From a virus (lineage: Duplodnaviria > Caudoviricetes): a DNA stretch of 64,000 bases. The position numbers and the translations under genes were made by a program. Location of the stretch: IMG/VR virus record IMGVR_UViG_3300037722_000745, positions 259,175 to 323,174 of that record. The stretch is one strand, 5' to 3'. Shown in pieces: positions 17,414-50,094 of this stretch. Numbering within the stretch: the stretch's first letter is position 1; every line of letters begins with the position of its first letter. The notes under the pieces are model-generated. The model had not been told where the DNA came from. It did not search any database and saw nothing but the letters and a program-made list of their open reading frames with translations.

Positions 17414-18037
17414 ATGACAACCACCGAACGTGTCTACGTCCGATATCTGCTAGCGAAGACCGCTCGTCTCAACCCTGGTGACTCTGTAGAGAAGGGGTCC
17501 CTGCGCCTGCACCGCTTCATGGATTCACTGGTTCTGTGGGATCTCACGAATGCTGGCAAACGAGGTAAGCGCGTCGAGAAGACCGTTGTCATCCCGAAGT
17601 ACACGCTGGGAAGCGACATCGATCGTCGTGGGCTGCTTGATCGATTGGGACAGACGCTCGAACACTACAGCAGCTACGCTAGGGCCCGAGGTTACATTTC
17701 CGACTATCTCAAGGACTACCCAAACGACCTCGAAATCCACGAGTACCAAGAGCGTGGGGTCGACGTAACACCCGCGGGCTTCAAGCCTCTCGTCATCAGA
17801 ACCGACAAGATCCTCATAGAAGCGGACTACGACGGCTTCCGGATCGTGAACCGCAGTGATCAGTACAACGAACCCACATGCATCCCGGCGGCCACGGGTG
17901 GCAAGAAGAGCATCCCGGTCTTCTACCGCTGGGTGCAGGACAACGAATCACGGATCAAGCGCATGACCTTCTACGAGGTCCAAAACGAAATGCAGCGTCT
18001 CGGGATCAAGTACCACTACTACTGCGCCATAGACTAA
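17414..18037 (+). CDS. Hypothetical protein with RVxxR[FYH]LxAKT N-terminal motif
   Basis: MTTTERVYVRYLLAKT; start at ATG 17414 inferred. Confidence 0.7.
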   Translation: MTTTERVYVRYLLAKTARLNPGDSVEKGSLRLHRFMDSLVLWDLTNAGKRGKRVEKTVVIPKYTLGSDIDRRGLLDRLGQTLEHYSSYARARGYISDYLKDYPNDLEIHEYQERGVDVTPAGFKPLVIRTDKILIEADYDGFRIVNRSDQYNEPTCIPAATGGKKSIPVFYRWVQDNESRIKRMTFYEVQNEMQRLGIKYHYYCAID

Positions 18038-18074
18038 GGGAGACTGCGCCCTCTGATTCGGTGTATCCATCGAG

Positions 18075-18677
18075 GTGCACGACGGCATCCTCAGTAACCT
18101 AGCCATCCATCAGGCGGTTGAAGCGGGCGATATCCAGATCGATCCTTTCGACCCCGAACAGATCAACATCACCAGCTATGACTTAACGCTGGGGAGTGAA
18201 GTCCGCATCTATCGGGATCCTAGCTACCCGATTCTCGACCCTGACATTTATCCTGACCTGGTCCCGCCTCGCGTCGAGCTAGATGCTCGCAAGGAGCCGA
18301 CCTCGATGTCCTGGAAGTTCGACTCTGAAACCGGGGTGTTGCTACATCCAGGTGTCGGCTATCTGATGCATACAAGGGAACGGATCTGCACCACGAAGTA
18401 CAACCCCATCCTCGACGGCAAGTCGAGTATTGGTCGCCTCTTCATTCAGGTCCACGCCACTGCAGGCTATGGTGATCCAGGCTTCGATGGGCAGTACACA
18501 CTCGAAGTGATTGTCCAGTACCCCGTACGGGTTTACGCCGGCATGCGCTTCTGCCAGATTCGGTTCCACACGATTGCCGGGGAGCTGTCGCGAACCTATG
18601 ATCGCGTCGGACACTACACACAGGAACAAGCCCAAGGGGCAGTTGCTTCACAAGCCTGGCGGCAGTTCAAGTCGTGA
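18075..18677 (+). CDS. dcd: dCTP deaminase
   Basis: SYDLTLG, GKSSIGRLF, GYGDPGFDGQYTLEV, FCQIRF motifs. Confidence 0.9.
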   Translation: MHDGILSNLAIHQAVEAGDIQIDPFDPEQINITSYDLTLGSEVRIYRDPSYPILDPDIYPDLVPPRVELDARKEPTSMSWKFDSETGVLLHPGVGYLMHTRERICTTKYNPILDGKSSIGRLFIQVHATAGYGDPGFDGQYTLEVIVQYPVRVYAGMRFCQIRFHTIAGELSRTYDRVGHYTQEQAQGAVASQAWRQFKS

Positions 18678-18891
18678 CCTGTCACGGCGCTGACCGTCGT
18701 TGAGTATCCCCTGCCACAACGCCTCGTGGAGCGTCGCCTGACGTCGGGGACGACGACGCACCCAGATCCAGACAAGGATAACGCTTAACGCGATCGCGGT
18801 CTCAAACCACATGTTCCTCTAATACACCACCAACCGGTGTATTATAAGGTGTTCCTAAGTACTCTGATCTCACGATGGTGTAGAAGCACCC

Positions 18892-19314
18892 ATGACCACA
18901 CCTACTCCAGAGCAACTCACCCTTCTCAACGACCTTCGTGACGCTGTTGCTGACAACGTGAAGAATAGAGGCTTCCGGGCGCAGATGGTTGAGGGTTTGA
19001 CCCCAGACCAATGGGAAGGGCCTGTAGGGGAACGCCTGAGGGCTGCGATCTTCACGGCTAACCAACACGGGGAAGCCTCCGAGTTCTGGGAAGCCTTCCG
19101 CAACGGGCTCCTACACGAGCCGTGCAACAAGGCTGCAAAGATGGAGGCCCTGGGACTTCCCGGGCTCACTTACGCAGAAGAAGAGATCGCGGACGAGATC
19201 ATCCGAGCCCTCGATAAGGCGGAAGCTTTCGGAGTGGATGTGGCCAAAGCCATAGCGGTCAAGATGGCTTACAACACTAGCCGACCTTTGCTGCACGGCG
19301 GTAAGAAAGCCTAA
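18892..19314 (+). CDS. MazG-like NTP pyrophosphohydrolase
   Basis: HGEASEFWEAFR...EEEIADEIIRALD...KMAYNTSRP. Confidence 0.8.
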   Translation: MTTPTPEQLTLLNDLRDAVADNVKNRGFRAQMVEGLTPDQWEGPVGERLRAAIFTANQHGEASEFWEAFRNGLLHEPCNKAAKMEALGLPGLTYAEEEIADEIIRALDKAEAFGVDVAKAIAVKMAYNTSRPLLHGGKKA

Positions 19315-19505
19315 CGTTCCAACAACTTGTAGTGGCGGGCAACATGTTGCCCGTGCTTCGTGAGGACCCAACGGCCTCGAAACTCTACAAGGTGGTAGCG
19401 CCGAAGTGGCCGCTGAAGCTCCGGACGAAAGCCCTTCAGCACGAAGTCTTCGAGGGCTCGGAGCCCTTCCTCAGGAAGCAACTCCAGGCGTACAATCTCC
19501 ACCAT
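19311..19505 (-). CDS. Small hypothetical protein
   Basis: 64 aa ORF filling the gap. Confidence 0.45.
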   Translation of the reverse strand: MVEIVRLELLPEEGLRALEDFVLKGFRPELQRPLRRYHLVEFRGRWVLTKHGQHVARHYKLLER

Positions 19506-19546
19506 CAGAGCAGTAGAGCCAACTCGTGTTGAGAAGTCAAAAAGAC

Positions 19547-19575
19547 TTTTAGATCTTCCCTGTGTGATGTGTAAT
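19547..19575 (+). promoter_or_regulatory. Class A promoter-like motif, predicted leaderless start
   Basis: TTTTAG-N17-TGTAAT, ATG 7 nt downstream. Confidence 0.65.
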
Positions 19576-19582
19576 ACCTACT

Positions 19583-19960
19583 ATGGACGATCTATTCGAA
19601 CTCGAGGTAGAGGCTCGTACCGCTGCTGACGCTAGCGTGACCCCCTCCCAAGAAGCCCTGAAACCCGGAGACTACTGTCTCCGGGAAGCCCACGGGTTGG
19701 CCATCTACAGTGAGATCCTGGACGCTGCCGAGGTTATCTTGGGGGGCCGGGATTTCAAGGACTTGGACCCCGAAGATCAAGAGGAAGTCACTGACACGCG
19801 AAAGTCCTACGCCCAACCCCACATGAGATACTACCGTTTCACACGGTCCTACAGCCGGGCTTGTCCAAACGGTGAATTGGGAGACATCCACGTCTCTACG
19901 GTAAAGAAAGTGCTCACAGCCGTTCAATTCCAGGCCGCGCGTGAAGCGGGATGGCCCTAG
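19583..19960 (+). CDS. Hypothetical protein
   Basis: ORF directly after class A motif. Confidence 0.7.
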   Translation: MDDLFELEVEARTAADASVTPSQEALKPGDYCLREAHGLAIYSEILDAAEVILGGRDFKDLDPEDQEEVTDTRKSYAQPHMRYYRFTRSYSRACPNGELGDIHVSTVKKVLTAVQFQAAREAGWP

Positions 19961-19994
19961 TAACAACAAGGCGCACTTTTACACTCGCACAGTC

Positions 19995-20333
19995 ATGACA
20001 CTCGCACTTTCAAGCTACCCGTCTACCAAAAAGGGTGCTGAAGAAATTCTCGAGGTCGCACGAGACAGAATCGTTCGGTTGTGGAAGCGACGTCGAGTGA
20101 CCAAAAGGACAGACGACCTGGTGGCAATTATAGATGGGGTCAAAAACTGCGTCCATATGAAGACGCGGGTCTCGGCTTACAATCAGGTGGCATCCCAATC
20201 CGAGAAACATGACCTGTTGCCCCGGCTGAGGCAGCCAGCTCCAAGCCATCCAGGCGGGGTTGTAATCTGGGCTCTCATTGGGTTCGCCGACGGTCGGGTG
20301 TGTATCCTACCGTTTACGGTTGCGAGATCATAA
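19995..20333 (+). CDS. Hypothetical protein
   Basis: ORF; start inferred. Confidence 0.55.
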   Translation: MTLALSSYPSTKKGAEEILEVARDRIVRLWKRRRVTKRTDDLVAIIDGVKNCVHMKTRVSAYNQVASQSEKHDLLPRLRQPAPSHPGGVVIWALIGFADGRVCILPFTVARS

Positions 20334-20374
20334 AAAACCTTTTAAGTTTTGCCTTTCTCCGGTGTAATAGAGAT

Positions 20375-20995
20375 ATGGCACGCAAAACAAAGAAGACTCC
20401 CAACGTTGACGTCAATTCCCTACTGACATCCCTCGCGAAGCGAGACCCAAAAAAGGGCAAGAAGGGAAGTGTCCCCGAGCTGACAAGTGCGGCAGCTCTG
20501 GCGGACAAGGCATTTTCCGCCTACGTCGAGATGAAAGACGCTACCGCCGCTTTCAAGGCGGTTGAAGGTGACGTTCTCGCTCTCACCGATGCAGAGTACG
20601 AGAAACGGGCGAAGTCTGGCGATTTCACCAAGAGTTTCAACCTGGTAGGTGAAGACACTGAAGGTGTTCAGGTCGTCTACTCTGATCGGTTCTCGGAACT
20701 CCCCATCGGGGCGGAAGAGGAACTTCGAGTGCACCTGGGAGACAACTTCAATCTCTACTTCGAGCAGAAGCGGGAGATCACTCTCAACAAGACCGATGAC
20801 GCCACGGTCCGCCTGCTCATCAAGAAGCTCGGGGAGGACGTGGTCGCGGAGCTGTTCGACATCAAGCTCTCCATCGCTGCCAAAGAGGGCATGGATCGCA
20901 ACCAGTTCGAGCTGCCCGAGGGTGTCGCCCTGCTGGCCGGTCTCAAGCAGAACAAGGCAGGCGTCCGGCCTATCAAGTCTGCCAAGAAGAAGTAA
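20375..20995 (+). CDS. Hypothetical protein with basic termini
   Basis: TTTTAA-N17-TGTAAT 6 nt before ATG; C-ending codon bias. Confidence 0.75.
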   Translation: MARKTKKTPNVDVNSLLTSLAKRDPKKGKKGSVPELTSAAALADKAFSAYVEMKDATAAFKAVEGDVLALTDAEYEKRAKSGDFTKSFNLVGEDTEGVQVVYSDRFSELPIGAEEELRVHLGDNFNLYFEQKREITLNKTDDATVRLLIKKLGEDVVAELFDIKLSIAAKEGMDRNQFELPEGVALLAGLKQNKAGVRPIKSAKKK

Positions 20996-21104
20996 CCCCT
21001 CCCCGCACTGTGTGCAGCGTACGGGAAGGGGGGACACGGGGCCTGCCGTTGGGCTCCGGCCACTGCACGGCGAACTAAAAACAGCGGCTCCAAGCGGATA
21101 GCGT

Positions 21105-21401
21105 ATGTCAGATTTACCACGCCAGTGTTACTGGATTCCCGTTGACAGTTTCGTGGAGGGGCAGGGCTTTAGAGCTTCGATTGTGATTGAAGGGGAACCT
21201 GGCCACTACCCCACCGGAGACTGGCCCTACGACGGTTCTCCTGGCCAGCGGCAACCCTACTTCTGGGGTCAGACCTACGACGAGGCCAAGACCATCGCGG
21301 ACGAACAGAACGAGAAGCTGGGGATCTCGAAACGGGACGCCCTAGAGATCGTAGCCTCGACCATGGGGCTGGGGAAAAGGCGAGGGAGGCACCGCCAGTG
21401 A
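21105..21401 (+). CDS. Hypothetical protein
   Basis: ORF coupled to next gene. Confidence 0.7.
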   Translation: MSDLPRQCYWIPVDSFVEGQGFRASIVIEGEPGHYPTGDWPYDGSPGQRQPYFWGQTYDEAKTIADEQNEKLGISKRDALEIVASTMGLGKRRGRHRQ

Positions 21402-21697
21402 GCCAAGTCAAATTCAAAACCCCGTTCATTGGGAAACGAATCGAGATCATGGCCGGCTGGGATCGGCCGCTCCAGCACTACTTCCTGACCATCTTCAACC
21501 TGGACGAAGACGAAGATGAAGTCTACTGGAGTACCCTGGACTTCCCGTCCGACGAGGACAACCACGGGACCGAGCGGCTACGCCGCCAGCTCGACAGCAT
21601 GGGCATCCCGGCCCCTGAGGGCTTCTGGGAGCGCGTCGAACGCCAGGAAGGCAACGTCAACCACGACTTCAAGGACGGCGCCTGGGAAAGCTACTGA
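21398..21697 (+). CDS. Hypothetical protein
   Basis: GTGA overlap; codon bias. Confidence 0.7.
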   Translation: MSQVKFKTPFIGKRIEIMAGWDRPLQHYFLTIFNLDEDEDEVYWSTLDFPSDEDNHGTERLRRQLDSMGIPAPEGFWERVERQEGNVNHDFKDGAWESY

Positions 21698-21797
21698 TGG
21701 GTTGGGTTTCCAAAATGATGCCGCCGCAGGCACTGATCATCCGAACACACCGTCTGGAAGCGACGATTCGGAACCACGCTCATGGTCGGCTAGCATC

Positions 21798-22346
21798 GTG
21801 AGGTTCTTCTACCCCAACAAACCGACCCGAGTCTACACGCCCGACCGAGTCATCCCGCGATTAACAAACCCCGCACAATGGGTTGTACAGCCCAAGTGGG
21901 ACGGGAAGCGGGCCGAGATCTCGTGCGAGGCCGGGAAGGTCATGCTGCGCAGCCGGGAAGGCCGAGAGTGGCCGGACCAGCGTTGGGGCTGGCTTGCGAG
22001 GTTGCCGCTACCCCAACCGTGGTTTCTCGACGGCGAGCTGACCAGGGACAACTATCTCCATGTGTGGGATTACGCTGTCCTAGGGGGCGAGTTGAAGTTC
22101 CGGGAACCCTACCAAGACCGCCTTGAACGGCTTCAAGAGCTTCTACCGAAGCTGCTGGTCCAGGAGAACCAGACCCTTGTGCCTATCGAGACGAGGCCGG
22201 CAACGGAGTACGAAGAGGTCCTAAAGCGGGAAGGCGATCCCCATCTCGAGGGCGTAGTTTGGAAGAATCTCCAAGGCACCGATTTTTGGGGCCCCTGGTC
22301 GACGAACACGATCTCGAGCCAGCTCAAATTCAGGTTCAACCCGTGA
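21798..22346 (+). CDS. Stand-alone ATP-dependent ligase/capping-type nucleotidyltransferase domain (no OB fold)
   Basis: QPKWDGKR (I), LDGEL (III), VWD (IIIa), EGVVWK (IV); start at GTG 21798 inferred. Confidence 0.75.
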   Translation: MRFFYPNKPTRVYTPDRVIPRLTNPAQWVVQPKWDGKRAEISCEAGKVMLRSREGREWPDQRWGWLARLPLPQPWFLDGELTRDNYLHVWDYAVLGGELKFREPYQDRLERLQELLPKLLVQENQTLVPIETRPATEYEEVLKREGDPHLEGVVWKNLQGTDFWGPWSTNTISSQLKFRFNP

Positions 22347-22870
22347 GGGTGGAAGTCGGCACACGGTTCCGAGCCCCCTACGAGGCTACCAAAGTCACCT
22401 GGGAGATCTACCGTAAGACGGCTGACGGCCGCTGGCTCGCACGCATCGAGGATGATGAGATTGCGGGTGACATCGGAACCTTCACGACACGGCAGATCGA
22501 ACAGCACTTGGGTTATGAGCAGGAGTTACGCCGAGCCCAGATCGATCATGAGAAGTTCTACCGCAGTCTGCCGATTGGGAAGATCGTCCACTACCACGAC
22601 GGTCATAACCGATTCGTTCGTTGTGAGGTGACTTCCGATCGCAAACTCAAGGCCATCGCATTGGTCGGCAATTGGCGCCCTGACGAATTGCCTCACAATC
22701 GCACAGACGGATCTAGGATTGTACCCTTCCACTCCCAGAGGGTTCTCCGCGGAGACGTCTTTGAACCTAGAGCACACACCGTGTACGAAGCGCTCTACGA
22801 AGCATATGAACACGATGATCCAGCACTCATGGACCCACGAGGGCTGCCAGATCTAAAACTCCAAATCTAA
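22343..22870 (+). CDS. Hypothetical protein
   Basis: GTGA overlap with upstream gene. Confidence 0.65.
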   Translation: MRVEVGTRFRAPYEATKVTWEIYRKTADGRWLARIEDDEIAGDIGTFTTRQIEQHLGYEQELRRAQIDHEKFYRSLPIGKIVHYHDGHNRFVRCEVTSDRKLKAIALVGNWRPDELPHNRTDGSRIVPFHSQRVLRGDVFEPRAHTVYEALYEAYEHDDPALMDPRGLPDLKLQI

Positions 22871-22909
22871 ATTTTTTAAGATCCCGTCGTGGTCAGTTGT
22901 ATAAACAGT

Positions 22910-23815
22910 ATGACCACGAAAAACCCAAACAGTCGTCTTCGGACGGCTATCGCAGCCCCCCGAGGCAAATCCCTTTTCAACGTCGATCCCGCGTCTCTGC
23001 TGATCATCGGCTTCGACACGGTGCCAGGTATGGACCGGCCCCACAAGCGTGGCGAACACGTGCTGTGGCAGGCCCGTGCCCTGGAGCCGGTGGACCCCGA
23101 CCTGGTCAACAGCATGATCGAGGACGGCTTCACGTCGGTCATCAACGTCCGCAAAGACGGGCCGAACCTCGAAGTCGTGGTCGGCCGGCGTCGAGTCAAG
23201 GCGGCTCGTCGTGCCAACGAGATCCTGGAAGAGCGTGGGCTCCCCCTGATCAAGGTCCAGTGCGAGGTTGTCAAGGGCAACGCCATCAGCCTATTCGGCC
23301 GCGTGATCTCGGAGAACGCCCTACGCAAGGACGTGCATCCGATCGACATGGCCGACGACCTTCAGCGGTTCCTCGACTTCGGAGCGACCGAAGAGGAGGC
23401 CGGTCGGCGTTGCGGCAAGACCATCCAGCAGTTGCGGATCACCCTCAAGCTGCTCGATCTCGATGAGGTCGTCCAGAAGGCCATTCGCGATGGCGTCTTG
23501 TCGGTCACGGCCGGCATCAAGCTGGCAGACCTGACTCGCGCCGATCAGAAGACCCAGCTCGCTAAGGTCATCACCGGCCAGGCAGGGCGGACGGTTGCCG
23601 CGGTGGCGTCGGTCGTCAAGGCCAACCAGAACGGAGGGGATGCCGTCCAGGCTCCAGGGAAGCGTCTTCTGAAGAAGCTGCTGGCCTCCGACGAGGCTGT
23701 TACCGTCTTCGGTGAGGACGGCATCAAGGCCCTTCGGTTCGCCATGGGCGACTTGCCGGTCACGAGCTTCGCCGGCCTGACCGCACTGATCCGCGAGGTC
23801 AAGTCCGCGAAGTAG
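22910..23815 (+). CDS. ParB/Spo0J-like protein
   Basis: EVVVGRRRVKAA, SENALRKD and HTH-like region; class A motif 6 nt before ATG. Confidence 0.8.
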   Translation: MTTKNPNSRLRTAIAAPRGKSLFNVDPASLLIIGFDTVPGMDRPHKRGEHVLWQARALEPVDPDLVNSMIEDGFTSVINVRKDGPNLEVVVGRRRVKAARRANEILEERGLPLIKVQCEVVKGNAISLFGRVISENALRKDVHPIDMADDLQRFLDFGATEEEAGRRCGKTIQQLRITLKLLDLDEVVQKAIRDGVLSVTAGIKLADLTRADQKTQLAKVITGQAGRTVAAVASVVKANQNGGDAVQAPGKRLLKKLLASDEAVTVFGEDGIKALRFAMGDLPVTSFAGLTALIREVKSAK

Positions 23816-23848
23816 GGGTGGGGTCCTAGGGGCCACACCCACCCTACT
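23811..23848 (+). terminator. Hairpin after ParB-like gene
   Basis: agtaggggtggggt / acccaccctact stem; no U-tract. Confidence 0.4.
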
Positions 23849-23928
23849 CCCAAAATCCAACCTACTTATACTTTTACATGGAACTAGTCTGGCTTCCCGC
23901 GTAAAATATACCGAGCAGGCAACCCAAC

Positions 23929-24255
23929 ATGGCACACAACACCATACCACCTGAGTCTCCTCTTCATCCCAGGTTGAAGCTGAAATTGGTCCAAGCCCTG
24001 GACAACACTGAGTACATCTACGAAGTCGCCAAGCAACTCGTAGGTGCATTTCACGAGCTGGATCGGGGGACTGTCCAGCTGGTCGGACAAGAGGATCCAA
24101 CCACTCTCAAAGCTGAGATCGACGCTAGCCTTCAGGCGGCCGAAGAGGCCCAGAACAACGTGAAGGCATTGTACGCGCTGCTGGAACTTCATAAGAGCAT
24201 CCTGCTAGAGGCTAAAGAGCAGCCCGTTCTGAGACCCCAGGACCAGGTACACTAG
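23929..24255 (+). CDS. Hypothetical helical protein
   Basis: 108 aa ORF. Confidence 0.6.
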   Translation: MAHNTIPPESPLHPRLKLKLVQALDNTEYIYEVAKQLVGAFHELDRGTVQLVGQEDPTTLKAEIDASLQAAEEAQNNVKALYALLELHKSILLEAKEQPVLRPQDQVH

Positions 24256-24424
24256 TGGCCCACACTCGAGACCTGAGAGAGTTGGATCGCTACTTGATCG
24301 AGATCCGCAAGGAGCGTCCCTTCCAACTACCGGCCGGCATGATTCCTGCCCCCGCTCGTTTTGAGGAAGAGAATCCCCATCCTTTGGATCTAGCCACGGA
24401 CCGGCCGACTGTACTTGAGATGGC

Positions 24425-25051: not shown

Positions 25052-25284
25052 GGTTTCTGCCTGAGCCGCCGACTGGCTGCTCGAAGAGGTGTGGCCGACC
25101 GTCGGGTCACTTCGACCGAAGTCCCCCTATCAATCCCCAATGCCTCACGTAACAGCGCCTTCAGCACCGTCTGCCATTTCCCCCTTCGGCTCAAGGCTTC
25201 TTCCCGGATGGCTAATTCTAGGTCAGCTGGGAGTCTAATCGACACCGGGCGGCTCACCTTGGCTGTGTTTTTACGTGGTGGCAC
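25048..25284 (-). CDS. Ribbon-helix-helix (CopG-like) protein
   Basis: PVSIRLPADLELAIREEA. Confidence 0.7.
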   Translation of the reverse strand: MPPRKNTAKVSRPVSIRLPADLELAIREEALSRRGKWQTVLKALLREALGIDRGTSVEVTRRSATPLRAASRRLRQKP

Positions 25285-25286
25285 CT

Positions 25287-26085: not shown

Positions 26086-26095
26086 AAAGACGACC

Positions 26096-28942: not shown

Positions 28943-29530
28943 GTGGGCCTTGAAGCTCTTGTCGTATGGCTGAGCGTGCAGTGCTCCGGAGTGATCGCGG
29001 CGCCCCGGCTGGTACTCTACGCGGGGCACTGCAGCGAGGAGGTCAGCTGGGTCTCTCTTCCGACAGGCGTACGGCACCTTCCTGTCAAGTGCGAAGCGCA
29101 TCCTCGTGTCCAACGTGGAACTCCAATGGACATCGCGTTCTGCGTATTCGACCATGACCTTGTGACCGGCACGAGTCTGTTGATCGCCTCACATGAGGCT
29201 GCGGTCACTCTCGTTGGCTACGGCTATGGGGCTCTTGTCACTCCCGGCCAATACGTTCGGTCATTCAAGGCTCTGAGGTGGGAACCGGTGGAGCATTGGG
29301 GCGGATTGGCTGTTTCCGTAGAGCCGAGTTCCTTCTGCGGAGGTGACTCGGGCGGTCCGCTCTTTGACGAAAACGGCGCGTTGGTTGCCATTGCATCGGG
29401 CGCACCGGCTGGAGAGGACTGCAACCTCGTAGAGACGAAGCTCCATTCGGCCTACTACGCGCCTTTGCTGCCCACCCTCTCGTGGATAAGGGATAGGACC
29501 GGCATATCACTGGCACCGACCCAACCCTAA
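28943..29530 (+). CDS. Trypsin-like (S1) serine protease domain
   Basis: CSG, AGHC, DIA and GDSGGP catalytic-triad motifs; no signal peptide seen. Confidence 0.8.
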   Translation: MGLEALVVWLSVQCSGVIAAPRLVLYAGHCSEEVSWVSLPTGVRHLPVKCEAHPRVQRGTPMDIAFCVFDHDLVTGTSLLIASHEAAVTLVGYGYGALVTPGQYVRSFKALRWEPVEHWGGLAVSVEPSSFCGGDSGGPLFDENGALVAIASGAPAGEDCNLVETKLHSAYYAPLLPTLSWIRDRTGISLAPTQP

Positions 29531-29559
29531 TCAAAAATCGCCGGCCCCCCGCCAGGGGC

Positions 29560-29930
29560 TTCGCCCCACGATCATCATCTAACGCCTACCCCGCCCGACC
29601 TTAAAGCTCACCGCCTTCGAGTTTTTCAACACGGGCCTCTAGCTCCTCGCGCTCTTGGCTGATCGGTGTAGTAGCTGCGTCCGCGGAAGCACCTTCTACA
29701 CCGGTATCTTCCTACGCCGACACGCTGCAGTGGCTCGGTTGTCTACGTGCGCTGGGCCAAGAGACGCAAGACGCTGCCGATGCGAATGGGTCGCTGGTAC
29801 CGCGACAAGACCGTACCGAGTTTCGCCGACATGCTCGCCACACTGCGGCGACAATGCTGGACAGTTTGGGTTTCTGATCAGGCCGGGCGAGGCCGCCTCG
29901 ATCAAAAGTCTGCGCGCTGCGCGCGATCGT
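29560..29930 (+). mobile_element. IS remnants: IS5/IS1182-like end plus IS701-like transposase C-terminal fragment
   Basis: tttttcaacacgggcct followed by CTAG (29622-29642); RWYRDKTVPSFADMLATLRR recalled as an IS701-type tail. Confidence 0.5.
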
Positions 29931-29968
29931 GGACAGCGGGATCGGACCATCGTGGACACCCGGATCGT

Positions 29969-30463
29969 GTGACCGTGGACGCGGGGATCGCGTTCGTGGA
30001 AAGCGAGACCGCGATGGTGGACGGCGAGATCGCGTACGCCGCGTGCCTCAACGTGGGCTCCGATCTGGTTAAGCGGGTGCTTCTTGGGATCACGCCCAAG
30101 AGGGGTTCGTCGGAGGGCTGTGAAGATCTGTACGGCCCCGTGAACGTCTTGAGTCCGGCGAAGCCCGTTCAGATCACAGACGGGATCTTGATCTACCGCG
30201 AGATTAAAGGGGTACCACTAATTCTCGCGGAATACGACACCGACGGGTCAGGGGATAGCGAGCAAGACAAGGATCTCGTTCGACACCTCGCCTACAAGTT
30301 CATCGAGCAAGAAGGTCTGGGGCGCCAGGTCTGCCTCGTCCCTAGGGCTCGGCACGAGCAGGACCGAGTGTTCGTCTATCGAGCAACCCTGCACATGCGG
30401 GGACACCGATTCCAAGGTGACCGTCGCGGAGCCGGATTAGTTCACTTCCTCGGCGGCGTCTAG
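29969..30463 (+). CDS. Hypothetical protein
   Basis: In frame with the IS fragment; start uncertain. Confidence 0.55.
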   Translation: MTVDAGIAFVESETAMVDGEIAYAACLNVGSDLVKRVLLGITPKRGSSEGCEDLYGPVNVLSPAKPVQITDGILIYREIKGVPLILAEYDTDGSGDSEQDKDLVRHLAYKFIEQEGLGRQVCLVPRARHEQDRVFVYRATLHMRGHRFQGDRRGAGLVHFLGGV

Positions 30464-41505: not shown

Positions 41506-41587
41506 AGACTTACAACTTTTTTGATGTGTCGAGGGGGAATTTCCGGATCTCGGCACATATAAGGCCCCTAGAGGGCCAGCATCTACA

Positions 41588-41950: not shown

Positions 41951-41953
41951 AAC

Positions 41954-42163: not shown

Positions 42164-42241
42164 GGTTGAGGCTCCCTCAGTTGTAATACCTACAGACTGA
42201 AAGTAACGCCTGACACCGGCCTCACGCGCGAGGAGATCGAG

Positions 42242-42901: not shown

Positions 42902-42902
42902 C

Positions 42903-43106
42903 ATGGATCAAGACGAATGGATCAGATGGGTGAGGATTGAGTTGGGCGCCGCGGGCGTTGTGTTGGCGATCACATTGGGTGCGGTCTTTTCCCTGGAGCA
43001 GGTCCCATGGTACTTAACGATCGTTCTACCCTTGTTCGTTGTCGTGTGTGGGGAGATCGCTAGGGATACCGTGGTTCTCGAACGCAAGAATCGGGGGGAG
43101 AAGTGA
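42903..43106 (+). CDS. Small 2-TM membrane protein
   Basis: Two hydrophobic segments. Confidence 0.6.
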   Translation: MDQDEWIRWVRIELGAAGVVLAITLGAVFSLEQVPWYLTIVLPLFVVVCGEIARDTVVLERKNRGEK

Positions 43107-43408
43107 AGGCTACAGACGAATTTCTACCCATCGCGATGCCGGAAACCGGTCAGTACTTGGGTTTGCGTACCACTGACGGTGGGGAACCAGAGCCCTCATT
43201 GCTAGTTACGGTCAACGAAGGACAGCCCCTTGATCCCAGAGAGGATCTTGTGCAATTAGTGCCTCAGGAAGGCAGCCCTACTTACACGGTTCGAACCGTT
43301 CTCAAAGGGCGTCGACCCAACCACAAGGGGCCGGCCCAGGTAGCGACGCCCACGTACCGACGTAACTTCGACCGCGTCTTCGGGCAGCAGAAGGACCTTC
43401 CCAACTGA
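43103..43408 (+). CDS. Hypothetical protein
   Basis: GTGA overlap. Confidence 0.6.
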   Translation: MKATDEFLPIAMPETGQYLGLRTTDGGEPEPSLLVTVNEGQPLDPREDLVQLVPQEGSPTYTVRTVLKGRRPNHKGPAQVATPTYRRNFDRVFGQQKDLPN

Positions 43409-43418
43409 AGTAGGAACC

Positions 43419-43985
43419 ATGTCAAACGGTATTCGAGTCAGCAACTTTCCGCCCATGATCGACCTACGACCCATCTGTCGCGACTCGGATCAATTCACGA
43501 CAACCGTCTACCTTGTCCACCCCTACGAGGGGAAAGAACCTTGGCTCATTCTTGGGCTGTCCAGCCTAAACCGACGAGACGGGCGGAATTCCCACCGGTG
43601 GGACCTGAGGGCTCGCCTCGGGGCCGAAAGCCCCGAGCGTGGGGTTCCTACTGATTTCGAGCATGACAACGCATACGCAGCCTGGCTGCCGTTGATCGCA
43701 GTCAGCTTTGACATGGTCATGGAGAGAATTTTCGTATTCACTGCTCACATTGACCCGACTCCAAACCTCTCAGATTTCCGTGTACCGGATCCTGACTACG
43801 ACCCACGCAAGCACCCAAACGCCTTCGAGTGTGAAGATGAAAGCTGCACCTCGCTCCAAGAAGGCCGACCGCACACTATCGTGCCTGAAGGATTCTACTC
43901 GCCGCCATTCAATCACGAATTGCACGAGAAGGTGAGGGGCTGGCAGGTCGAGATCTGGATAGACCTCCAAACAACGAGTGTTTGA
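43419..43985 (+). CDS. Hypothetical protein
   Basis: 188 aa; agga RBS. Confidence 0.65.
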   Translation: MSNGIRVSNFPPMIDLRPICRDSDQFTTTVYLVHPYEGKEPWLILGLSSLNRRDGRNSHRWDLRARLGAESPERGVPTDFEHDNAYAAWLPLIAVSFDMVMERIFVFTAHIDPTPNLSDFRVPDPDYDPRKHPNAFECEDESCTSLQEGRPHTIVPEGFYSPPFNHELHEKVRGWQVEIWIDLQTTSV

Positions 43986-44203
43986 TGGATGACTGGGAAC
44001 CACAACCCCCGCGGGCAGAAGGTGACGGCGCAGTAAGCCTCAAGCGCAGGCCGGATGGGGGTTTCTACCTGAATGTCGCTCAGGATGGGGAAGAGCGGTG
44101 TGTCCGCATGTCCACGTACAACGCCTGGCGCGTGTTCGCGATGTTCGCTACGATGTTGGGCGTGCCCATCCCGAAACGCATCGCCAAAACGATCTTCCTA
44201 TGA
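43985..44203 (+). CDS. Small hypothetical protein
   Basis: TGATG coupling. Confidence 0.55.
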   Translation: MDDWEPQPPRAEGDGAVSLKRRPDGGFYLNVAQDGEERCVRMSTYNAWRVFAMFATMLGVPIPKRIAKTIFL

Positions 44204-44391
44204 GTGCCGACAACTTCATCGCCCTGCTCATCACGCCCGCCGAAGACGGTGGCAAAGAGTACCGGGTCACGATCCTCCAGGACTCCGACTCCTACGGCGA
44301 GGAAGGCTTCGCGCTGCTCTACCAACAGGGGCGTAGAGATCACCTCATAAATGACGCTCGGGAACTGTGGGCCGGCAGCAATTCTGTCTGA
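44200..44391 (+). CDS. Small hypothetical protein
   Basis: ATGA overlap. Confidence 0.5.
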   Translation: MSADNFIALLITPAEDGGKEYRVTILQDSDSYGEEGFALLYQQGRRDHLINDARELWAGSNSV

Positions 44392-44716
44392 ACACGAAGC
44401 TTGGGTAGAGATCGACCGCATCTTTAGGAGCGAGGCCATCGAGCACGGCGCTCAGACGTTTGAGCTGGACGAACCATTCGCCCCGGACCCTCTGAGGCCG
44501 TTCGCTCTCAAGTTGCTTCAAGCCTACCAACCCGACGTCTACGAGTTTCCCAAGACCAAGGCGCAATTCCGGGACTCCATTGAGCTGTGGCGACGTGGCT
44601 ACCTGCATCGCGTGCTAGACACCACGCCTTTCGAAGGCAAGGAACAGCACTCATACCGCCGTACGGCTGCCGGGACACAGCTCGCCGAAGCTCACTCGTC
44701 GTCCGACAGCAAGTGA
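44351..44716 (+). CDS. Hypothetical protein
   Basis: 121 aa ORF; start uncertain. Confidence 0.5.
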   Translation: MTLGNCGPAAILSEHEAWVEIDRIFRSEAIEHGAQTFELDEPFAPDPLRPFALKLLQAYQPDVYEFPKTKAQFRDSIELWRRGYLHRVLDTTPFEGKEQHSYRRTAAGTQLAEAHSSSDSK

Positions 44717-44792
44717 TCCCACCGCTCTCTGCAACGGCCACGACGGGAACAACTGCGACCATCAGGACAAGTTATACAACCGTGGAAGGGCA

Positions 44793-45290
44793 TTAAATCT
44801 CGCTGACCTTCGGCACCTTGAAGGGTGGCGCCTCCTGCCCCTGTCGGAGCACAAAACGACTCCGGTACTTGTCGTCCGGCCACAGAACGATCTCATTCCA
44901 CTGGGAGCAGCGTCGATGGTGTCGAGTCCCGTGGAGAAGCGAGACGTACTCGACTTCCAGCTCTCCTGTGTCGGCGCTGAGTCCGAGACCCTCCGACAGG
45001 TATATTCCGCCTTTGAAGTGATCCCAGATCCCGTGCTTCATGTCCGGTCCTGCCTTGGATACCCAGCCGAAATGCAGTGTCTCCAACAAACCCTCAATCA
45101 GATTTGCCTCATCGGTCGTGGGTTCCAGAGTGTATGCTTCGCAGAATCTCTGAATGAACGAAGGACTCCCATGTTCCCTAGGCTGCCGTACGATCTCATG
45201 CACGGTGTTGAAGAACTTGATGCTGGGGGATCCAGGCTGACCCAAGAATCCGTACAGCGTTCCGTACAGATCAATTGAAAGTGTTGCCAT
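44793..45290 (-). CDS. DUF1653-like domain protein
   Basis: WDHFKGGIY...TGELEVEYVSL. Confidence 0.65.
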   Translation of the reverse strand: MATLSIDLYGTLYGFLGQPGSPSIKFFNTVHEIVRQPREHGSPSFIQRFCEAYTLEPTTDEANLIEGLLETLHFGWVSKAGPDMKHGIWDHFKGGIYLSEGLGLSADTGELEVEYVSLLHGTRHHRRCSQWNEIVLWPDDKYRSRFVLRQGQEAPPFKVPKVSEI

Positions 45291-45321
45291 ATTGAAACCT
45301 GTGTTCGGTGTAGAGCCTGGT

Positions 45322-45645
45322 ATGGACAACCACGCTACAGCTCAGGAAATTGTACACCGACTCAACACCATGATCGAAGACGACGAACGTGGTCCTCAGC
45401 TCGGTGTGCGTGATCTTCTACACAGGATGTGTGAAACACGATTACCTGTTTCTCCTGAGTTGGCAGCGGAACACTCCACAATCCAAGCAGGCCCCAACAG
45501 CACTGTCGGGTTGCTGGGAGTCCTCAACGGGATCTGTGGAGCATGGTCTGACGGCTACGGTCTTATCGCGGGCGTTTTTGATGAAGATGGCAAGTTAGTA
45601 AGATTCGTTATGACTCGTTACGAATCGACGTCATTGGTTGTTTGA
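45322..45645 (+). CDS. Hypothetical protein
   Basis: CGGTGTAGA 7 nt before ATG 45322. Confidence 0.7.
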   Translation: MDNHATAQEIVHRLNTMIEDDERGPQLGVRDLLHRMCETRLPVSPELAAEHSTIQAGPNSTVGLLGVLNGICGAWSDGYGLIAGVFDEDGKLVRFVMTRYESTSLVV

Positions 45646-45850
45646 TAGCTGCTGCGAGATCCTGATTCGCGCCAAGTCTATTGCAACTGTCCCACCGGAC
45701 AAGGCGTTGCGTGCTCGCGAGAGAGACCCTATGCAAGTTGCGCGTTTCCCTATGGTCTCGTGCTCGCAGTGTGGTCGCGGCTTCGGCCCCGGTGACCATG
45801 GGTTTTCCCACTGCGACAGCCACGAGGGTATGCCCGTGTTCGAGGACTAG
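45638..45850 (+). CDS. Small zinc-binding protein
   Basis: CSQCG...HCDSH; start uncertain. Confidence 0.5.
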   Translation: MFDSCCEILIRAKSIATVPPDKALRARERDPMQVARFPMVSCSQCGRGFGPGDHGFSHCDSHEGMPVFED

Positions 45851-45975
45851 TCCGGTAAAACCCTGATAGGACGCCAAGGGCATGTCCTACCCGAGGGAAA
45901 CGATCGGCCAGCGCATGCTGTACCGAACGTTCTGCTTCATGGGTTGGGTTCTAGACAGGCTGGAGGATCGCCGAC

Positions 45976-46509
45976 GTGAGCGAGAGATCTGAACGAGTCG
46001 CCACCCGCTTCCTACAAGCGAAGACCTACGCCAAGGCCAAAGATGACATCATGGCCTACCTCGACAAGAAGGGGTGGAAGGTTCAAAAGGGGCTCAAGGT
46101 CCCGCACGCGACTTCTCCCGACGGCGACCTGCGTCTCTGGTTCAAGGGACAGTCGATCCACACGAGCGAAGGCAACAACCACAGCCTGGGTAGTGCTCGT
46201 TCCTACACGGGCTACGACACCGCGATGTCCAAGCGCACGGACATCCGCAACACGACGCCCGAGGCGTTCCATGCGGGGCTCAAGAAGGACTACCCACGAG
46301 TCGACGTTGGCAAAGTCGAAGCGCCGAAGAAGGACGATGGGGGTGGTGGTAAAGGCGGATCTCGCGAGGACTTCCTCAAGTCGGTTGGGGACCGCATGGT
46401 ACCCAACCCGAATCCCGGCAGCCGCAAGCAACACCCGCAGGTGAAGATCCGCTCACTCGACTGGGAGCACCAAAAGCCCTTCTACGAGAAGTGGAAAGCG
46501 AAGGACTAG
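45976..46509 (+). CDS. Basic protein with RVxxRFLxAKT N-terminal motif
   Basis: MSERSERVATRFLQAKT; GGAGG RBS. Confidence 0.75.
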   Translation: MSERSERVATRFLQAKTYAKAKDDIMAYLDKKGWKVQKGLKVPHATSPDGDLRLWFKGQSIHTSEGNNHSLGSARSYTGYDTAMSKRTDIRNTTPEAFHAGLKKDYPRVDVGKVEAPKKDDGGGGKGGSREDFLKSVGDRMVPNPNPGSRKQHPQVKIRSLDWEHQKPFYEKWKAKD

Positions 46510-46751
46510 TCGTCGTCCCACTCGATCTCGGTGCGACCCTCCACGTTCTCCCACTGGCCGTCCTTTTCCATCGCGGCTAAAAACTCGTCGGTCTTCAGAT
46601 GGGCCTCGAAGTAGCCCCGAGCCTCCTCCCGGGTCTTGCCCGCGAACGTATGCGTGACCGCCGGGTAGGAAGAGTCCCCCTCGTAGATCCGATGGATCAT
46701 TCGTACGGTTTTTGCGGCAAGGTGTCGCCGCACCACACGTTGGGCGTCCAT
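46506..46751 (-). CDS. Small protein with RVxxRHLxAKT N-terminal motif
   Basis: MDAQRVVRRHLAAKT. Confidence 0.7.
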   Translation of the reverse strand: MDAQRVVRRHLAAKTVRMIHRIYEGDSSYPAVTHTFAGKTREEARGYFEAHLKTDEFLAAMEKDGQWENVEGRTEIEWDDD

Positions 46752-46774
46752 ACCCTGGCGAACGCATCGAAGAA

Positions 46775-46984
46775 CTAGGAGGGCAGCGTGAAGTGTTGGG
46801 CCAGCTCGCGTGTGATGTCAGCCTCGGTCTCACCTCCGACCAAGACGAGCCGCCCCTCGATCCCGAACTCCGCTAGATCCACTACGATCGGCTTTCCCTC
46901 TACGAGCTTTTCGCAGTTCAGCCGCGACAGACCGAGAATTGCCATACGTTTGTTGTCCGAGGCGATTGCGCCGGCTTTGACCAT
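46775..46984 (-). CDS. Small hypothetical protein
   Basis: GGTGTAA 8 nt before ATG. Confidence 0.65.
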   Translation of the reverse strand: MVKAGAIASDNKRMAILGLSRLNCEKLVEGKPIVVDLAEFGIEGRLVLVGGETEADITRELAQHFTLPS

Positions 46985-47022
46985 GGGTCCAGCTTACACC
47001 AAAAAGTGGTGTAGATAGGGTA

Positions 47023-47613
47023 ATGGCGGTAAACCAAGCTCCGGAGCTGCTACAGCCCTATGCCTGGGTGTTGACTCCGCAGAATCCCGGATTCCTTGCT
47101 GAGATTTTAGAGTTCCCTGGTTGCACTGCAAAGGGCGACTCGCCAGAAGAGGCTATTCAGAATCTCGTCAAGGTCGCTGAACGCTGGATCGAGGCGCAGC
47201 ATGCCGAGGGCAAGAACATCCCGCCCCCGCTCACGAACTACGACACCCGGGGTCAATTCGCATTACGCCTTCCCGGTTCGCTCTACAACAAGGTGCGGGT
47301 CGTAGCTGCCCGAGAGAAGATCAGCACCAATGCGCTCATCACCTTGTGCTTGAGTGAGTTCATGGGCTTTCTGACCGGCCAGACAACACAGCGCAGGCTG
47401 CCTTCCGGAGCCCACGAGACGCTCGAAATTCAGGCCCACTACGACACGGACGAAAAACAGATCGTGCTCCGTGTCGACGGCCCTTCCCAACCGCTGTCCG
47501 TGCGCGTGAAGCTCTCTGGAGACACCCCGGTGTTCGTCGAGCTGGCGCAAGACGAAGAGCACCCGGTTCGACTCTTCCCTGGCTCAGACCTCAACCTGGA
47601 CTTCAATCGATGA
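47023..47613 (+). CDS. hicB: HicB-family antitoxin with C-terminal extension
   Basis: AEILEFPGCTAKGDSPEEAIQNL plus GQFALRLPGSLY RHH; no hicA adjacent. Confidence 0.85.
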   Translation: MAVNQAPELLQPYAWVLTPQNPGFLAEILEFPGCTAKGDSPEEAIQNLVKVAERWIEAQHAEGKNIPPPLTNYDTRGQFALRLPGSLYNKVRVVAAREKISTNALITLCLSEFMGFLTGQTTQRRLPSGAHETLEIQAHYDTDEKQIVLRVDGPSQPLSVRVKLSGDTPVFVELAQDEEHPVRLFPGSDLNLDFNR

Positions 47614-47807
47614 CCGTACGCATCGTGTACGAGCCCCTCACGTTCACCGCCTTCAGCACCGAGATGGGAACCCACGATCGGGTGTGGGTCTATCCGATGC
47701 GCTACGAAGTCCAGGTTCCAATCGTCTACCTCGACGACTACGCTGCGTCGGCCTCTTTCTTCACCTTCAACAACGCCTGTGAGAACGAGGGCCAGAACAA
47801 CTCGTAG
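47610..47807 (+). CDS. Small hypothetical protein
   Basis: ATGA overlap. Confidence 0.45.
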   Translation: MTVRIVYEPLTFTAFSTEMGTHDRVWVYPMRYEVQVPIVYLDDYAASASFFTFNNACENEGQNNS

Positions 47808-48292
47808 AGATGCTGGAAGTCCGCGAGCCGCGGACCCGGTTTCTCACGGACGTACTCGTGTGTGTCCGTGAATAGCTCGGTATCACGCATCCAGTCGTAG
47901 AAGTCACCCTCATGCTCGATGCCGCTCGAAACCAGCTCCCACTCCTGGCGGGCTTGCTTGGCGGTGCAACCCCCGGCGCGGCGGGTCTGGAGGATCTCGT
48001 TGCGGATGTACTTCGTGGTTGCCTCGGGGTCGAACTCACGATCGCGACCACCTACGAGTTTGCCGGCCGCGTAGCCCATATCGAGCCCAGCCAAGAAGCT
48101 GTAAAAACAAGGCCCCGGGTGCGTCCAAGCAAAGGCGTAGCCGCCGTAGGAACTCTCGATCGCTAGGCTGTAGTGGTTCGGCTGCGGGTCGACCGTGAAC
48201 TTGGCGTACTCGTATCCGATCCGAAGGTCGAAGATGGTTACGGTTCGCTTCGTGACCGTCACCTTGCGAGATCGTTTCCCCATTGCAACCAC
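47738..48292 (-). CDS. Hypothetical phage protein
   Basis: 184 aa; codon bias. Confidence 0.65.
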   Translation of the reverse strand: MVAMGKRSRKVTVTKRTVTIFDLRIGYEYAKFTVDPQPNHYSLAIESSYGGYAFAWTHPGPCFYSFLAGLDMGYAAGKLVGGRDREFDPEATTKYIRNEILQTRRAGGCTAKQARQEWELVSSGIEHEGDFYDWMRDTELFTDTHEYVREKPGPRLADFQHLYELFWPSFSQALLKVKKEADAA

Positions 48293-48471
48293 CAGAGAAT
48301 GCAGAACAGAAGACCTAGGATCGTCACCGCTACGATGTTGTAACGGCAGTGGCGGCGCCGTTCCAGCTCACCACGCTCACAAAACTCACACGTCCTGGGG
48401 ATTTCGTTGAAGCCCCCAGAGGCCGTCAAACCACTGTCCTGACACCATTCGCAGTCAGGTTCCCGAAGCAT
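48259..48471 (-). CDS. Small zinc-finger plus TM protein
   Basis: CEWCQDSG...CEFC; C-terminal hydrophobic helix. Confidence 0.55.
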   Translation of the reverse strand: MLREPDCEWCQDSGLTASGGFNEIPRTCEFCERGELERRRHCRYNIVAVTILGLLFCILWWLQWGNDLAR

Positions 48472-48570
48472 CTTTCAAGATCCGATCCGCCACGAAGTCC
48501 ATGAGGGCGCAGTCCATGTGGAATTCGATGTTCGATAGAGGCTCCCAGGCGAGCTTGCGCTCTGCGGAAG

Positions 48571-48885
48571 TCACGGCTCGTCCTTGAGATCTTCGACGGC
48601 CTTTCGCAAGCTGCCCATGAACCTCCGGGCTTTGGCCGAGACTCGCCCGGCTTCCTTCCGTACCGTATCTGCCGCCCGCTCGGCCCCCATGGTGGCTTCC
48701 TCGACGACTTGGCCGATCTCTTCGACCACGTCCTCGAAGGGCGTTCGCCGGTCCTGGAGCTTCCGCCGGTCCTCGATCATGTGGGCGACGGCGGCCCGCA
48801 GCTCGTTGTGTTCAGGGTTGTCCGCGAGGGTTTTGAGAGCGTTCTGGACACGTGCTTCGATGAGGTCTTCGGGGCGGTCTGGCAT
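48571..48885 (-). CDS. Helical hypothetical protein
   Basis: CGGTGTAAT 8 nt before ATG. Confidence 0.7.
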   Translation of the reverse strand: MPDRPEDLIEARVQNALKTLADNPEHNELRAAVAHMIEDRRKLQDRRTPFEDVVEEIGQVVEEATMGAERAADTVRKEAGRVSAKARRFMGSLRKAVEDLKDEP

Positions 48886-48939
48886 GGGTGGTAATTACAC
48901 CGCCGAAGATGCTTCAATGCTTTCGCTCAGGGGGAAACC

Positions 48940-50094
48940 ATGCCCCACGCCACCCGCGTCATCGAGCGCTTCCTCGAAGCCTCCCTGCCTCGCCGCAAAA
49001 AAGCCCTTGCAGATAGCGAGGTTGCGGAGCTGAAGCGGCACTTGTTCAACTTCCAGAAGCTGCTCGACTCCCTCGCCAAAGAGGCGGAGTCCGTCGAGGC
49101 CAACCCTGAGGATTACGGTGCCCAGGTGAGCGCCGGGGCCGCAGTCCGAGCCACCTTCCACTTCGCCAAGCAGTACGGGATCGAAATGCTCGTACTGACT
49201 GTCCTGCGGGGCTACCAGTTGACCCCCAAGCAGCGGAAGATTCTGGAACGCGGCGCCCGCACCCTCGCCAAGCGCCAGATGAACCGGATCAAGCCCGACA
49301 AGGCCGTAGCGGTCTTCACCAAGTTCACCAACCAACTGGTCGAACTCTACGAAACCACCAAAGAGGTGATCGAGCGAGGCCGCTTCCACACGGAGGAAGG
49401 CGACACCACACTCAAAGCCGGCCCCTTCACGCTGATCAACACGGGCGGCTTTTCCGAAAAGCAGATGGAAGATGTCGCCAAGGTTGTCGAGAAGGCCGCG
49501 CAACAGCTCTCCCGCGTGGGACTTTCCCGGGTCTGTTACGGCAACATCCAGGTCACCAACACCATCGGCCGCTCCGCCCGCATCCTGGCCTTCTACCTCA
49601 AGGGCCGGGACGAACTGTTCGTTCGGGCCAACCTACGGGGCTCCCAAGCGCCGGCCGTCGCCAGCGTGATCCATGAACTCGGCCACCGCCTCCACTTCAA
49701 GTTCCTCGCCGGCAAGGACCGCCAGATCCAGGAGATCTACGAGGTCATCGCGGACCGCAACCGCCAAGCCCTATGGGACATGCGACAGGATCCCTCCAAG
49801 CGACCGAAGCCCGGCGACACCATCCCCGAAGGCCGCAAGACCTGGGTGGTCGGCCCGGAAGGCGTGCAGGTCAACTCCCGCGGGCAGGCCGGCGTCATCG
49901 TCGAGCTTCAGAGCGACCCCAAGAAGCGAGCCATCATCCGGTTGGAGGAATGGTTCAAGCAGAAGGGAGACCTCGCGTTCGTATCCCCCTACGCAGAGAA
50001 GAACCACGAGGAAAACTTCGCCGAGATGGTTGCCCACTACGCCCTAGGCACCCTCCCCGACGATCAAGAGCCGTTGCTCAAGAACGTTCTCTAG
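48940..50094 (+). CDS. Zincin metallopeptidase (lethal-factor/MPTase-like) with RVxxRFLxA N-terminal motif
   Basis: VIHELGHRLH...VSPYAEKNHEENFAE; N-terminus MPHATRVIERFLEAS. Confidence 0.8.
   Translation: MPHATRVIERFLEASLPRRKKALADSEVAELKRHLFNFQKLLDSLAKEAESVEANPEDYGAQVSAGAAVRATFHFAKQYGIEMLVLTVLRGYQLTPKQRKILERGARTLAKRQMNRIKPDKAVAVFTKFTNQLVELYETTKEVIERGRFHTEEGDTTLKAGPFTLINTGGFSEKQMEDVAKVVEKAAQQLSRVGLSRVCYGNIQVTNTIGRSARILAFYLKGRDELFVRANLRGSQAPAVASVIHELGHRLHFKFLAGKDRQIQEIYEVIADRNRQALWDMRQDPSKRPKPGDTIPEGRKTWVVGPEGVQVNSRGQAGVIVELQSDPKKRAIIRLEEWFKQKGDLAFVSPYAEKNHEENFAEMVAHYALGTLPDDQEPLLKNVL

Follow-up and report, generated by a model that had tools for sequence, protein, structure and literature searches.

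A portable terminal peptide, a probable address label, on unrelated proteins of an uncultured huge phage

Short address peptides sort proteins in cells and in viruses. To our knowledge, the capsid-targeting sequence (CTS) of phage T4 is the only well-studied phage example, and it is in use as a tool for loading foreign proteins into capsids; the T4 ADP-ribosyltransferase Alt is both packaged and injected. In encapsulins, extended cargo-loading peptides rich in Gly, Ser and Leu dock cargo inside an HK97-fold shell, in the scaffolding proteins P22 gp8 and 80alpha gp46, and in a mimic of them, SaPI1 CpmB, a short basic amphipathic helix at the C-terminus docks on the capsid protein, and the unfoldase ClpX tethers adaptors and substrates. 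The internal proteins of T4, otherwise unrelated, have the CTS alone in common (PMC3012670). Here, a short terminal peptide (the tag) carried by unrelated proteins is described from a 64,000-nucleotide stretch (the window), which is the final 64 kb of a 323,174 bp viral record (IMGVR_UViG_3300037722_000745) listed in IMG/VR as linear and ~68% complete.

The tag in the window and in the whole genome

Four proteins of the window, here named A to D, had been listed as tagged in the original prediction. All four are real and carry the tag where it had been placed, and a fifth protein that had been overlooked, K, is tagged at its C-terminus. The genes, their tags and two copies of a short upstream motif are as follows (window positions):

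17414..18037, plus strand: gene A, start ATG (17414); 207 amino acids, isoelectric point (pI) 9.1; N-terminus MTTTERVYVRYLLAKT
~17426-17461, plus strand: N-terminal tag of A, ERVYVRYLLAKT
45976..46509, plus strand: gene B, start GTG (45976); 177 amino acids, pI 9.8; N-terminus MSERSERVATRFLQAKT
~45991-46026, plus strand: N-terminal tag of B, ERVATRFLQAKT
46506..46751, minus strand: gene C, start ATG (46751); 81 amino acids, pI 5.3; N-terminus MDAQRVVRRHLAAKT
~46707-46742, minus strand: N-terminal tag of C, QRVVRRHLAAKT
48940..50094, plus strand: gene D, start ATG (48940); 384 amino acids, pI 9.5; N-terminus MPHATRVIERFLEAS
~48952-48984, plus strand: N-terminal tag of D, TRVIERFLEAS
54072..54431, minus strand: gene K, 119 amino acids, with a C-terminal tag
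54075-54104, minus strand: C-terminal tag of K, WPVSVRYLAD, then a stop codon
46753..46767, minus strand: 15-nt motif ATGCGTTCGCCAGGG, directly upstream of gene C
48917..48932, plus strand: 16-nt motif ATGCTTTCGCTCAGGG, upstream of gene D

When the tag was written as the pattern RV..R[FYHW]L.A, five occurrences were found in the six-frame translation of the whole genome, four of them in the window. All five sit 4-10 residues past the start codon of an open reading frame (ORF) of at least 77 amino acids, and in A, B, C and D the tag lies 5-7 residues past a plausible start codon, near the start of the protein as had been claimed. The proteome was expected to hold 0.027 copies (Poisson P ~1e-10), and the chance that all five would fall within the first 20 residues is ~3e-6, which bears out the predicted excess of the motif at N-termini.

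Outside the tag, no mutual similarity between A, B, C and D was detected by BLASTP, in agreement with the claim that the remainder of each protein is unrelated. The codons used for the conserved residues vary synonymously among the copies; therefore, selection acts on the peptide and not on the DNA, and a DNA-level motif as the signal was ruled out on the same grounds. Inspection also ruled out a Tat or Sec signal, as no hydrophobic core follows the tag and the twin-arginine spacing is absent, and K-T-A as a cleavage motif (39 occurrences versus 22 expected) was too weak to use. It is also true, as had been noted, that no TGTA lies just upstream of A to D, but this is uninformative because TGTA occurs within 25 nt in just 17% of genes.

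From a position matrix and a relaxed pattern, a genome-wide list of ~15 tags on 14 proteins was compiled, located at N-ends, C-ends or both, with the consensus x-R-V-[VAI]-x-R-[YFHW]-[LQM]-x-A. The tag behaves like a terminal address peptide, and it is unusual in that it moves between protein ends, interchanges with a second tag and is linked by an operon to an unfoldase (see below). No paper describing it was found in literature searches.

The proteins behind the tags were searched against Pfam and PHROG, and nothing above curated cut-offs was obtained for A to D or the other tagged proteins, except one DRAT match in the tagged protein encoded next to ClpX. The body of D contains an HExxH zincin-like domain whose residues H245, E246 and H249 are invariant in 61 homologues, and a fold search returned weak zincin-type matches alone (collagenase, lethal factor, Wss1). 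In the AlphaFold2 model of D (mean predicted local distance difference test, pLDDT, 91.7), the tag forms a helix at residues 2-14 with a pLDDT of ~50, and the linker at residues 11-21 falls below 50; the model thus suggests, at low confidence, a helix on a flexible leash ahead of a confidently predicted domain. For the domain of A, a fold search gave nothing useful in the PDB and a weak DUF3560-like match in the AFDB. With the tags trimmed, the A family was aligned by hhalign to the family of ds1, the gene directly downstream of the phage ClpX gene (95.8%, E 8e-9), and by this comparison the body of A is a distant paralogue of ds1.

The remaining tagged proteins of the genome are listed below (positions in the whole record, called genome positions here and later):

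16452-17840, minus strand: E, zincin, N-terminal tag
240154-240489: F, N-terminal tag
51194-52303: G, zincin, N-terminal tag
163910-164287: N1, N-terminal tag; between portal and head protease
196682-197305: N4, N-terminal tag
176093-176512: N5, N-terminal tag; adjoins the large terminase
79622-81301, minus strand: J, zincin, C-terminal tag
29195-30415: DRAT-like ADP-ribosyltransferase (ART), 406 amino acids, tag at both ends; directly upstream of ClpX
N3, with one N-proximal tag copy

The four HExxH zincins D, E, G and J are paralogues of one another (E values 1e-5 to 2e-26), with the tag at the N-end in D, E and G and at the C-end in J; therefore, the tag occupies opposite ends within one paralogous family. 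A 'tag-only' ORF of 16 amino acids, N2 (genome 164614-164664), was discarded because it runs antisense within a different gene and is compatible with a chance occurrence, and no homologue of N1 was found in 23 related records.

Several further features were seen beside the tagged genes. The upstream motif of C and D, described in the original prediction as ATGC(G/T)TTCGC(T)CAGGG, is exact at both sites listed above and spans ~20 nt with its flanks; the genome contains these two copies only, which are too few to interpret, and they could represent a shared regulatory site or the trace of a common 5'-end origin. A conserved module of ~70 amino acids (G-D/E-x-I-L-Y-G-K-x-K-N...F-K-x-W) often follows the tag, either alone, fused to the zincin of E, or in frame upstream of a second tag and an A domain (genome 16452-17840, minus strand, N-end; L050 20932-21207; the A-family loci L104 and L107 of G006 and G004). 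Another shared terminal motif, RFNYEGGFHLPQ, is found near the C-ends of two adjacent genes (genome 120619-121128 and 121140-121745, both on the minus strand).

Conservation of the tag in related phages

No DNA-level relative of the 323,174 bp phage was found among deposited phages. Its clade consists of uncultured phages of 100-512 kb whose major capsid protein (MCP) is 79-92% identical to that of this phage (genome 156706-157587, minus strand); across the clade, identity is 55-67% for ClpX and 25-46% for the tagged zincin. The MCP is retained in every relative examined, and partial MCP-like fragments lie elsewhere in the genomes of G005, G009, G012 and G013, labels of the G001-G022 style denoting the related phage records compared here. 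Of these relatives, 23 records, 16 of them ClpX-bearing, were scanned with a hidden Markov model (HMM) of the tag.

The tag is kept by orthologues at 25-45% identity in more than 20 related huge phages. For D, 164 metagenome homologues were collected, many on contigs of 150-620 kb, with bodies 34-58% identical to that of D, and most of them start with the tag. Several members of the D family have two tandem tags and several others one tag at each end, while a subset has Y-[SD]-Y-D-R-R at the N-end in place of the tag, sometimes in tandem. In the A family, 8 of 8 orthologues (26-41% identity) keep the tag immediately before the conserved domain, relatives of B keep a variant of it, and copies between domains also occur. 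Taken together, the C-end, both-end, tandem and swapped tags define a repeatable peptide that can sit at either terminus, as encapsulin peptides do. Separately, in LR745208.1 an open frame of ~13 codons, VARIATRFLRSKV, followed by two stop codons was seen at ~249672 on the minus strand; it may be what is left of a tagged gene or may match by chance.

The peptide that replaces the tag was seen in the broader form Y-[SDN]-Y-D-[RK]-[RT] at the N-end of many D-family zincins (P0005, P0007, P0029, P0036). This genome has a C-end copy in the structural region, LEYSYDRTGL, and the looser variants AYDRRQS and RYSYDKR, the latter in J; the sites are at genome 129002-129967 (minus strand, C-end), 79622-81301 (minus strand, N-end) and 112620-118169 (minus strand, C-end). 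The second peptide may be an alternative address label. In three contigs in which the contexts of Y-x-Y-D-R-R were inspected, neither a ClpX gene within 10 kb nor any additional tagged neighbour was seen.

The portability of the tag, its tandem copies, its exchange for the second peptide, its conservation and the tether model all point to a movable label read in trans. The tag is thus very probably a portable docking label, short, likely helical and flexibly tethered, through which unrelated proteins bind one shared reader. The original prediction of a modular label on unrelated cargo agrees with this part of the results (a portable, conserved peptide, modelled as a tethered helix), whereas its further step, loading into the virion, is a conjecture that would rest on the analogy with T4, the basic pI of tagged proteins, the portal-adjacent tags and the persistence of tags where ClpX is missing.

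Two further explanations were weighed against the same observations. Terminal amphipathic membrane-targeting helices are found in MinD, FtsA and MreB, and the tag could likewise send proteins to the cell membrane, being short, terminal, sometimes tandem and composed of Arg and hydrophobic residues, with a clear helical hydrophobic moment in some copies. However, its residue identity is too strict for a lipid-binding helix, as in an HMM built from 80 tags R5 is invariant (80/80), position 2 is V or I and position 6 is aromatic. Moreover, several copies have little or no such moment (0.21 in A, for instance) and large hydrophobic residues are few, which makes membrane targeting highly improbable. 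That the tag is nothing but a structural or regulatory N-cap common to proteins that share no partner, or that some reader other than those considered below recognises it, is unlikely; an N-cap would hardly explain movement between termini, tandem copies or the swap for a second tag, all of which are difficult to understand without a reader acting in trans.

Candidate readers of the tag

For the reader itself, we tentatively favour loading into the capsid. The label would direct mostly basic, effector-like proteins (the four zincin paralogues, the ART and small proteins such as A, B and C) into the assembling prohead by binding the capsid interior or the scaffold, and the cargo would enter the head together with the DNA and be released when the next cell is infected, in the manner of the T4 CTS or an encapsulin cargo-loading peptide. 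This step is suggested by analogy with these systems.

The composition of the tagged set is consistent with such a role. A pI above 9 was calculated for 12 of 15 tagged proteins versus 27% genome-wide (P 3e-5), and for 8 of 11 tagged families (P 2e-3), with a median of 9.2 in the D family (119 members); this bias is as expected of proteins held inside a DNA-filled head. In kind, the tagged cargo (ART, peptidases and small basic proteins) is comparable to the internal proteins that T4 packages. The genome encodes a head module with portal, an intein-bearing head protease, putative scaffold and an MCP that matches the PHROG major-head-protein family. The g939 family, encoded next to the portal, is tagged in G007, G017 and G022, and its member in this genome has a tag-like peptide; N1 and N5, near the head protease and the large terminase, are tagged as well, and tags are ~2-fold enriched within 20 kb of the MCP gene. 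In addition, LR745208.1 (485 kb) is without ClpX and the whole CN-hydrolase/ART/ClpX/ds1/DUF1848 island and has perfect tags on a zincin and other proteins, and G015, a record with terminal repeats, also is without ClpX and keeps tags. The presence of tags in these two ClpX-less genomes fits the capsid reading.

Several results weigh against capsid loading. Within 5 kb of the MCP gene, tags are not enriched (3 versus 2.5 expected). The termini of the scaffold and the MCP bear no resemblance to the tag, and scaffold mimicry was ruled out because the putative scaffold has no tag at either end. A shared cleavage-type motif after the tag was looked for in the tag alignments and none was seen, whereas the T4 CTS is strictly N-terminal and cleaved, and here tags are also C-terminal, tandem and inter-domain. 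No cultured relative was found. Finally, the capsid model does not predict the strong clustering of tagged genes in the ClpX operon. As a separate observation on the head module, the head-maturation protease gene (genome 159633-163910, minus strand) encodes 1425 amino acids through its Hint and LAGLIDADG (intein) domains, as compared with ~500-570 amino acids in relatives.

The ClpX neighbourhood is the strongest statistical signal for a reader of the tag, and where the original prediction had allowed for a common partner and left it unnamed, this signal points to ClpX. The 16 ClpX-bearing relatives gave 99 tag-HMM hits. Within 2 kb of ClpX there are 17 of these where 1.6 would be expected, and within 5 kb there are 23 as against an expected 3.8 (P 3e-11), spread over 14 of the 16 genomes, a 6-10-fold enrichment that persisted when near-duplicate records were dropped (19 hits within 5 kb versus 3.2 expected) and for which the MCP-anchored control at 5 kb gave no comparable signal. 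The genes flanking ClpX are tagged almost everywhere in the four metagenome and twelve IMG/VR ClpX neighbourhoods, and the tagged neighbours vary among genomes. In G007, G021 and G022 a D-family zincin gene shares the strand of ClpX and is separated from it by 17-27 bp, and in G010 and G013 such a gene is found within ~70 to 780 bp. The zincin is on the downstream side of ClpX in G007, G010 and G022 and on the upstream side in G013 and G021. Elsewhere, the genes near ClpX encode HI-like ARTs, members of the ds1 family (tandemly tagged in G003) or, in G009, a homologue of A, and G016 and G017 have a B-like domain 1.7 kb downstream; A itself is homologous to ds1, the gene following ClpX.

On this evidence the tag could be a docking label or degron that ClpX recognises through its pore or its zinc-binding N-domain, a reading that we regard as possible but rather doubtful. 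The phage's own ClpX would be used where present and the host's otherwise, and the tagged proteins would act, with ClpX and host ClpP, either as tethered adaptors or as timed substrates. The phage ClpX is genuine (TIGR00382, 405 bits): its N-domain has the CxxC...CxxC pattern, its pore loop reads GYVG, and G269 and F270 of its IGF loop do not vary among 51 ClpX sequences from phages. Of 22 IMG/VR records, 16 encode ClpX, among them 4 of 4 rated complete. ClpP (including PF00574) was unmatched in this 68%-complete record; among 23 relatives just 2 have it, in neither case next to ClpX. Tethering motifs typically are terminal, sit on a flexible tether and occur in tandem (PMC7226468).

Other observations argue against ClpX as the reader. 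Well-conserved tags are found in the two ClpX-less genomes, LR745208.1 and G015, so that the tag does not depend on a phage ClpX, although host ClpX could substitute. Outside the ClpX island, ClpX-bearing records have 1.55 tags per 100 kb and ClpX-less records 1.12, and some tagged genes, such as B, C and D, form islands far from ClpX. The synteny around ClpX is inherited, and the genomes are not independent samples. Neither the basic pI of the cargo nor the portal-adjacent tags are predicted by this model, and the tag, modelled as a helix, resembles the SspB tail in R-V-V alone. A complex of the ClpX N-domain (two copies, with zinc) and D residues 1-40, predicted with alignments, scored 0.02, which counts neither for nor against binding.

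Some features of the ClpX locus were recorded in passing. A single-protein search for ClpX relatives in viral contigs found none, and a ClpP-like head protease was rejected because this genome has no PF00574 match. A CN_hydrolase (nitrilase-superfamily) gene at genome 30417-31187 on the minus strand precedes the ClpX cluster here and in most related records (loci compared, L050-L053 and L084-L094), with a DUF1848 gene a few genes downstream. In G022:C1:215750-218023 and G005:C1:277158-279440, the N- and C-terminal ClpX matches are split within one single open frame of ~780-795 amino acids, which suggests an intein-like insertion of ~350 amino acids after ~residue 128. G001:C1:261571-262176 (plus strand) encodes a protein of ~180 amino acids that ends in a stand-alone ClpX-type zinc-binding domain (44 bits, model positions 6-48), separate from the full ClpX of that phage.

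Both candidate readers might also act together, with ClpX recognising the tag and unfolding the basic cargo or threading it into the prohead, or otherwise chaperoning its loading, an idea of ClpX-assisted loading that was proposed in general terms by Iyer et al. (PMC7824862). This combination would cover all the genomic signals, the link to the ClpX operon as well as that to the head; phage ClpX usually occurs without phage ClpP, and terminal tags would suit the start of threading by an AAA+ pore. Nevertheless, no unfoldase is known to feed a capsid, conservation of the IGF loop favours docking to ClpP in the ordinary way, and ClpX-less relatives would need host ClpX, all of which makes the combined model decidedly improbable. 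In a two-part sorting system, which is unlikely too, the R-V-x-x-R-aromatic label would be read by ClpX, which would thread the cargo or, with host ClpP, degrade or deliver it, and Y-x-Y-D-R-R would mark a parallel route. It is similarly unlikely that the ~14 differently armed labelled proteins per genome serve such a system as cargo or adaptors.

Whichever reader applies, phages of an entire uncultured clade, with genomes of 300-500 kb, each have ~14 proteins with an undescribed label, and it marks peptidases and an ART that resemble host-directed effectors. The identity of its reader would show which unknown huge-phage genes are co-delivered or co-regulated, would offer a handle for cargo loading or targeted degradation, and would make it directly testable why large phages carry their own ClpX.

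Comparison with described systems

Among the described systems, membrane-targeting helices combine consistent amphipathicity with loose residue identity, and the tag shows neither. It also differs from the coat-binding helix of scaffolding proteins, since the putative scaffold of this phage is untagged. With the encapsulin cargo-loading peptide it shares shortness, placement at either terminus and occasional repetition, and its consensus is unlike that of these peptides.

The likeness to the T4 CTS, as found on IPI-III and Alt, is that of a short N-terminal peptide common to unrelated, often basic effector-type proteins (PMC3012670). The CTS is exclusively N-terminal and is removed by the prohead protease, whereas copies of the tag are also found at C-termini, repeated in tandem and between domains, with no cleavage motif after them.

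The tag and the T4 CTS presumably have no likeness in sequence, as none was recognised. The ClpX-binding region of SspB and RssB and terminal degrons such as ssrA and that of lambda O resemble the tag as terminal peptides on a flexible leash (PMC7226468). As compared with the SspB tail, the tag is present on ~14 proteins per genome, including head-module proteins, and persists without phage ClpX. As in ClpX systems, in which adaptors and substrates are tethered to the unfoldase, the phage ClpX has a zinc-binding domain at its N-terminus, the tag is a terminal peptide modelled on a flexible linker, and tagged genes are coupled to ClpX in the genome, some of them lying in the ClpX operon itself.

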